276 bases of DNA, from sequence record X15714.1; one strand, 5' to 3'. Under the pieces are notes generated by a model. That model was not told the origin of the DNA. It saw only the letters and a program-made list of their open reading frames with translations, and made no database searches. The translations under genes and the position numbers were made by a program. How positions within the stretch are numbered: the stretch's first letter is position 1; each line of letters opens with the position of its first letter. Positions 1 through 276 of the stretch are shown here, in pieces. The stretch comes from a phage.

Positions 1-2
1 CT

Positions 3-149
3 GTTGATATTCATCCTCGTACTTCTGGTAATAATGTTTTTGTTGGTGTGATTTGTTCTAGCGCTAAATGGACCTCCGGTCGTGTGATTGGTACCATCGC
101 TACGACTCAGGTTATTCATGAATACCAAGTCCTTCAGCCGCTTAAATAA
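3..149 (+). CDS. G: Major spike protein G (Microviridae), C-terminal fragment; 5' end lies upstream of the window
   Basis: Frame 3 is open from position 3 to TAA at 147-149 and translates to [48 protein letters not shown]. From memory, phiX174 G ends ...[46 protein letters not shown]; the shared PRT-GNNV-VG core and identical LQPLK terminus indicate homology at roughly 50% identity. 30 of 48 sense codons end in T (my count), typical of microvirus coding sequence. The other two + frames hit stops early (TGA 5-7, TGA 49-51). Confidence 0.85.
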
Positions 150-206: not shown

Positions 207-227
207 GGAAGGCGTTAGCCGCCTTCC
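207..227 (+). repeat. Hairpin B: 8-bp perfect stem (GGAAGGCG / CGCCTTCC) with 5-nt loop TTAGC; candidate origin stem-loop I
   Basis: Read directly: 207-214 GGAAGGCG pairs with 220-227 CGCCTTCC. It is followed by CTCCTGCTAAGCC, not a T-run, so it is not a canonical intrinsic terminator. A CTG lies 4 nt 3' of the stem. Confidence 0.7.
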
Positions 228-230
228 CTC

Positions 231-233
231 CTG
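231..233 (+). other. CTG trinucleotide; candidate primase initiation site on the viral-strand template
   Basis: DnaG primase initiates opposite the T of a template 5'-CTG-3'. This CTG sits just 3' of hairpin B. A primer started opposite T232 would read 5'-AGGAGGGAAGGCGGCUAACGCCUUCC-3' and copy hairpin B. As I recall it, the G4 origin primer begins pppAGUAGGG..., which is similar. CTG is a common trinucleotide, so position alone is weak evidence. Confidence 0.35.
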
Positions 234-244
234 CTAAGCCCAAA

Positions 245-250
245 AAGGAG
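245..250 (+). promoter_or_regulatory. Shine-Dalgarno sequence (AAGGAG) for gene H
   Basis: AAGGAG at 245-250 lies 8 nt upstream of the ATG at 259-261, a canonical spacing for an enterobacterial ribosome-binding site. Confidence 0.6.
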
Positions 251-258
251 TTACAGCG

Positions 259-276
259 ATGTTAGGTGCCGTTGTT
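259..276 (+). CDS. H: DNA pilot / minor spike protein H, N-terminal fragment (first 6 codons; continues beyond the window)
   Basis: ATG at 259 with an upstream SD; translates to MLGAVV. H follows G in all phiX174-like microviruses, and phiX174 H begins MFGAIAGG (from memory), so the M-x-G-A-[IV] start is consistent. Six codons give no statistical support on their own. Confidence 0.55.

Follow-up and report, generated by a model that had tools for sequence, protein, structure and literature searches.

A probable G4-type origin of complementary-strand synthesis in a coliphage alpha3 sequence lacking 26 nt

Start-site choice by bacterial primase is studied, in its textbook minimal form, at the G4-type origin, where the system comprises SSB-coated single-stranded DNA and DnaG. 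The DNA considered here, a stretch of 276 nucleotides referred to as the window, was proposed in an initial annotation, made from the letters alone, to contain such a start. Primase was predicted to initiate opposite T232, within a CTG at 231–233, and to copy an adjacent hairpin, there called hairpin B. Is T232 the counterpart of the start site mapped in phage G4? And, if it is, would the copy of the sequence in the window still be expected to prime there?

The window within the alpha3 genome

By megablast the window corresponds to coliphage alpha3 [NC_001330.1] 4811–5112, with St-1, phiK and other Alphatrevirus genomes as the next matches. Base-by-base comparison with alpha3 revealed a single 26-nt gap flanked by no mismatches, the sequences being identical across all 276 nt present. 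Judged from this alignment, the window derives from coliphage alpha3 (Microviridae, Alphatrevirus), shown as the viral (+) strand, and runs from the end of gene G through the G–H intergenic region into the beginning of gene H. Genes and mRNAs of the microviruses have the same sense as the packaged viral strand; it follows that what enters the cell as single-stranded template is the + strand of the window.

The 3' end of gene G, encoding the major spike protein, occupies positions 1–149 (+ strand). Its C-terminal end is seen in the frame 3 translation, which finishes ...EYQVLQPLK* at the TAA stop codon 147–149, and the alpha3 CDS G ends at 4959. Gene H, encoding the minor spike protein, extends from 259 onward, with its ATG at 259–261 (alpha3 CDS H start 5095 = window 259). 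The ribosome-binding site AAGGAG at 245–250 opens this last portion of the window (245–276, + strand), and a ribosome-binding site for H is annotated in the record M25640.1. Between the two genes, the intergenic region (150–258, + strand) is 109 nt in the window versus 135 nt in alpha3. Its alignment with alpha3, St-1, phiK, 10 other Alphatrevirus and 2 G4-group genomes identifies it as the G4-type origin region for complementary (minus) strand synthesis. The setting is that of a DnaG-dependent origin, being non-coding, on the viral (+) strand of a Bullavirinae microvirus and between CDS G and CDS H.

No near-identical copies of the window were found in the plasmids or complete E. coli genomes searched. 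Three phages, ID32, WA13 and WA45, are ~98% identical to the window from position 135 on (135–276), with no match upstream in gene G (1–134). The pattern is suggestive, for this group, of a recombination boundary close to where gene G ends.

Hairpin I and the primer start site

The G4 record annotates an 'RNA primer of replication' at 3970–3997 and an 'origin of compl. strand synthesis' (rep_origin) at 3998, the T at 3997 being the annotated primer start. In the sequence of the record, GGACGGCG-AAAGC-CGCCGTCC forms G4 stem-loop I and CTA separates it from the CTG; the T of this CTG templates the first nucleotide of the annotated 28-nt primer, AGUAGGGACGGCGGCUUUCGCCGUCCAU. Priming in G4 requires no proteins other than primase and SSB and begins at the thymine of a 5'-CTG-3' on the 3' side of three stem-loops; the primer, up to 28 nt long, runs through stem-loop I, and C first appears in it at position 9 (PMC6783573). 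That description agrees with the sequence read from the record. The initial annotation had noted a resemblance to a G4 primer start of AGUAGGGA, and this start is correct, the G4 record reading AGUAGGGACGGCGGCUUUCGCCGUCCAU.

The corresponding features are all present in the window. Positions 207–232 read GGAAGGCGTTAGCCGCCTTCCCTCCT, and the reverse complement, AGGAGGGAAGGCGGCTAACGCCTTCC, is exactly the primer that had been proposed. The predicted primase initiation trinucleotide, 5'-CTG-3', is at 231–233 (+ strand), 3 nt past a stem with CTC between, which is the same 3-nt offset as that of the G4 CTG at 3996–3998. T232 would template the first primer nucleotide (pppA). By analogy with G4 the predicted primer, 5'-pppAGGAGGGAAGGCGGCUAACGCCUUCCAC, would be up to 28 nt long (205–232, − strand) and would start AGGAGGGAAGG... 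at its 5' end. This 28-nt analogue, AGGAGGGAAGGCGGCUAACGCCUUCCAC, the reverse complement of 205–232, is the same as the G4 primer at 22/28 positions. The suggestion that the primer could itself fold agrees with computation, in which the predicted 28-nt RNA forms the same hairpin as the DNA at −16 kcal/mol (z = −5.1).

The hairpin to be copied is a perfect 8-bp inverted repeat, 207–214/220–227, with a 5-nt loop. Stem-loop (hairpin) I (207–227, + strand), identified from the inverted repeat, fold and covariation, has the loop TTAGC at 215–219 and is a G+C-rich hairpin immediately 5' of the start on the template. The DNA folds at −9.4 kcal/mol (z = −2.7), a moderate advantage over shuffled sequences, 2 of 200 of which fold equally well. 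Pairing is maintained in all of the sequences (16/16, 100%), including one compensatory pair (alpha3 group, A:T; G4 group, C:G).

The presence of a CTG is in itself not beyond chance. The + strand of the window has 5 versus 4.7 expected from composition, and 3 of these are intergenic. It is position and conservation that set CTG 231–233 apart. The trinucleotide is invariant in 16/16 aligned origins (the window, 13 Alphatrevirus and 2 G4-group sequences), in 14/14 IMG/VR loci and in two divergent plasmid copies; the IMG/VR scan, which returned these 14 loci, used a pattern that left four positions around the CTG free. Around it, TCCCT(C/A)CTGC(T/A)AAGCC is mostly invariant across the aligned origins. 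The adjoining 3' flank, C(T/A)AAGCC (234–240, + strand), is conserved in the alpha3 group, the G4 group and the plasmid copies, and by analogy with G4 it may be part of an SSB-free single-stranded stretch to which primase binds.

Could primase start instead at one of the other intergenic CTGs, 154–156 or 177–179? These are within the same non-coding region, but both sit in the arms of stem III or of a local hairpin (see below), the T of CTG 154–156 is replaced by C in most relatives, and G4 has its mapped start at the CTG on the 3' side of stem-loop I. With both inside stems, one not conserved and neither fitting the G4 geometry, these two sites were rejected, and a start at either is considered exceedingly unlikely.

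One observation counts against the start-site reading of CTG 231–233, which is that in naked DNA it is weakly pairable, via 198–202/229–233 or 228–232/246–250. The first of these pairings, TAGGA 198–202 with TCCTG 229–233, is available in the alpha3 group, where it extends hairpin I across the initiation CTG, and is disrupted in G4-group sequences. The second is between CTCCT 228–232 and the gene H Shine-Dalgarno sequence AGGAG 246–250.

Because the geometry is the same, the primers match at 22 positions, the CTG is invariant and hairpin I has a compensatory pair, T232 is supported as the homologous primase start site. The initial proposal of a start here that copies the hairpin is upheld by this homology. 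For wild-type alpha3, the alignment gives us high confidence that the start site is T232 (alpha3 nt 5068).

The location of hairpin I between two genes, on the coding strand of a phage whose mRNAs are in the viral-strand sense, raises the alternative that it acts mainly on mRNA as an intrinsic terminator or stabilizer between G and H, the CTG being incidental. The ability of CTCCT 228–232 to pair with the Shine-Dalgarno sequence is consistent with this. However, the stem is followed by CTCCTGCTAAG rather than by a T-run, and the scan of the window found neither promoters nor, on both strands, terminators; the terminator reading was rejected on these grounds. Additionally, the cassette is found between other genes in G4 (F–G) and in non-phage plasmids, which fits a DNA signal and not a gene-specific mRNA signal, and the CTG and its flanks are invariant. 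A role mainly in mRNA is thus very unlikely. No Rfam 15 covariance model matched either strand at E up to 10.

A different alternative retains the start site and changes the structure beside it. In the model of Hirao and colleagues, SSB binding would flip the 8-bp hairpin I to a very stable mini-hairpin, GCGTTAGC (212–219), freeing 220–233 for primase. The mini-hairpin motif is defined in a 2026 review (PMC13037366), which cites Sims, Capon and Dressler 1979 for the St-1 and alpha3 origins and places GCGTTAGC in hairpin I of St-1 and alpha3 where G4 has GCGAAAGC, the site of primer synthesis. The window contains an exact match to the motif (GCGNNAGC / GCGNAGC) in its GCGTTAGC at 212–219, and the variants in relatives are GCGCAAGC, GCGTAAGC, GCGAAAGC and GCGTAGC. 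Across the relatives the first one or two bases of the hairpin I loop vary (TT, CA, TA, AA, T) and the last three, AGC, never do; therefore GCGNNAGC or GCGNAGC is always kept, as the model would have it. The plasmid copies likewise contain GCGAAGC. When their stems are shortened, fragments of St-1 and alpha3 hairpin I adopt the mini-hairpin form, and mini-hairpin DNA is a poor SSB binder, yet the authors themselves state that the switch has not been demonstrated at the G4 origin (PMC13037366). The compensatory change from A:T to C:G, at the fourth stem position, argues instead for selection on the full 8-bp stem. We consider the switch unlikely, though it deserves more weight than the mRNA reading, and take hairpin I to be the element that would be folded beside T232.

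Stem-loop III and the 26-nt deletion

Upstream of hairpin I is a second structure, stem-loop III (152–194, + strand), recognized by covariation. Its long-range stem pairs GGCTGCC 152–158 with GGCAG 190–194 and, in the wild-type, with the CC that follows GGCAG and a bulged A. There are two fully compensatory pairs in this stem (T:A to C:G and G:C to A:T), it is 100% paired across 15–16 sequences, and the minimum-energy fold of G4 includes the homologous stem III and reproduces the three stem-loops. The stem-loop III block is present in the window at 150–194. The bulged A and the CC have been deleted, so that only CTGCC 154–158 and GGCAG 190–194 can pair, leaving 5/7 pairs.

A local hairpin competes with this stem. 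CTGCCC and GGGCAG, at 177–182/189–194 (177–194, + strand; inverted repeat I6), pair in the minimum-energy and centroid folds, and this is probably the other hairpin of the initial annotation. It shares its 3' arm with stem III, making the two mutually exclusive. Among the relatives it shows one-sided wobble changes only and no compensatory change, yet it is preferred by energy folding of alpha3. A function for the local hairpin as the upstream element is compatible with the data, although compensatory changes are found only in the long-range stem 152–158/190–194.

The deletion is the sole unusual aspect of the window. Its junction relative to alpha3 is at 194/195, with placement ambiguous by 1 nt and no mismatches on either side, and the missing sequence is ACCGAGCCGTACGGAGATACCCGATA (alpha3 5005–5030). 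These 26 nt are absent from the central block between stem-loops III and I, which in G4 is the region of stem-loop II. The ACCGAGCCGTACGGAGATACCCGATA block is present in 15/15 aligned natural origins, in 14/14 IMG/VR loci and in two aligned plasmid homologues. Between alpha3 and G4 the deleted block is identical at 21/26 positions (81%), compared to 29/36 for the block of hairpin I with its flank and CTG, 36/46 for the stem III block and 3/10 (30%) for the adjacent short spacer. The deleted block is one of the constrained parts of the origin, because its identity of 21/26 contrasts with 3/10 in the spacer. The two closing G:C pairs of stem III that the deletion also takes, 2/7 pairs, are invariant.

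Does this natural or artificial loss matter for priming? The origin may be crippled, because a conserved 26-nt block and 2/7 of the stem III pairs have been removed. In the deleted copy the homologous site is correctly identified, and its priming activity is probably reduced. A substantial loss of function is a serious prospect, which we put somewhat below an even chance. The extreme form of this explanation holds that the window contains the right homologue but that it is dead in the deleted copy: SSB phasing or primase binding would fail, no specific primer would be made at T232, and synthesis would rely on inefficient non-specific priming. The three stem-loops of G4 are said to place two primase molecules at an optimal distance (PMC6783573). 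The presence of the block in every natural relative examined, its high identity between alpha3 and G4 against that of the spacer, and the loss of two invariant pairs from stem III also argue for it. The deletion junction was, in addition, absent from the IMG/VR and JGI metagenome collections; a single match in a GTDB genome was 21 nt, degenerate and on a Neomarinimicrobiota contig with unrelated flanks, and was rejected as a chance match. Against a dead origin, the window keeps hairpin I intact, along with the CTG, the 3' flank and 5 bp of stem III. A CTG on a short template can also be used by primase, and among the three stem-loops of G4 it is stem-loop II that shows the least conservation. 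No functional data were retrieved for the 26-nt deletion, and a literature search on alpha3 minus-origin mutants and G4 stem-loop deletions yielded nothing usable. A dead origin is a real contender, if one we would not quite bet on.

It is also conceivable, but improbable, that the window is a real alpha3 variant, natural or laboratory-made, that lacks the central 26 nt and nonetheless primes specifically at T232. If this were true, recognition by DnaG would require no more than hairpin I and the CTG together with a shortened stem-loop III, and the central block would serve another purpose. If the sequence is real and the phage viable, it would be a ready-made test of the need for the conserved central block.

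Comparison with known origins

Overall, by analogy with G4, the window very probably represents the G4-type complementary-strand origin of alpha3, with DnaG starting at the CTG of T232. Following the G4 scheme, host SSB would coat the incoming single-stranded circle while stem-loops I and III (plus II in G4) stay folded, leaving SSB-free DNA on both sides. Host DnaG primase would bind this SSB-free DNA with no primosome and begin the RNA primer opposite T232, in the CTG that follows stem-loop I after 3 nt. Copying of stem-loop I would generate pppAGGAGGGAAGGCGGCUAACGCCUUCC(AC), up to ~28 nt, and Pol III holoenzyme would then extend the primer round the circle.

The G4 primer was reportedly sequenced in 1978. 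The primase-dependent origins of alpha3, St-1 and phiK are said to have been sequenced and compared with G4 by Sims, Capon and Dressler in 1979 (J Biol Chem 254:12615). The flagged start site is thus a rediscovery of one described in 1978–79, and the prediction was right but not new. Since the site is the alpha3 counterpart of the G4-type origin, its confirmation adds nothing new to biology. It does illustrate that a real initiation nucleotide is recoverable from raw sequence, as was achieved in the initial annotation.

The minus-strand origins of alpha3, St-1 and phiK are the closest known systems, sharing with the window the G–H location, hairpin I with GCGTTAGC, the CTG and the 3' flank. 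The difference is in the 26 nt at alpha3 5005–5030, which these phages and every other relative have and the window does not.

The G4 origin likewise has an 8-bp stem-loop I with a 5-nt loop and a CTG 3 nt later whose T is the start, as is predicted in the window. It shares most of its primer with that predicted for the window and has a homologous stem-loop III, and the requirement for DnaG and SSB only would, by analogy, extend to the window. The two differ in the third primer nucleotide, which is U in G4 and G in the predicted primer of the window, and in stem-loop II, which is clear in G4 (GGAGA...TCTCC) and is a structure that the alpha3 group does not have. They also differ in location. 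The origin cassette is at 3884–4019 in G4, between F and G, and at 4960–5094 in alpha3, between G and H; it must therefore have been relocated as a module in the course of microvirus evolution.

Copies are also present outside of phages. Small non-mobilizable E. coli plasmids, CP057337.1 and CP057350.1 (9653 bp each) and NZ_CP062859.1 and NZ_CP062904.1 (8009 bp each), carry the cassette at 74–83% identity over 117 nt. One plasmid of each size was aligned, pRHB29-C22_2 (CP057337.1, 2501–2619) and the unnamed plasmid NZ_CP062859.1 (867–985). Both aligned copies have, like the phage origins, the stem III block, the central block and TCCCTCCTGCTAAGCC, which includes the CTG. Unlike the phage origins, they are in a non-phage context and hairpin I has diverged, being built around GCGAAGC. 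No microvirus genes are annotated within 2.5 kb on either side of the plasmid cassettes, and no function is annotated for them in the records. They are candidate G4-type single-strand initiation (ssi) signals, based on their sequence, and may deserve a separate look as such.

The other well-known signal of this kind is the phiX174-type primosome assembly site (PriA/n' site). It too is a structured non-coding signal on the microvirus viral strand that starts the complementary strand. This type of site needs PriA, PriB, PriC, DnaT, DnaB and DnaC, and the priming it supports takes place at many positions. The homology of the window is with G4 and not with phiX174.
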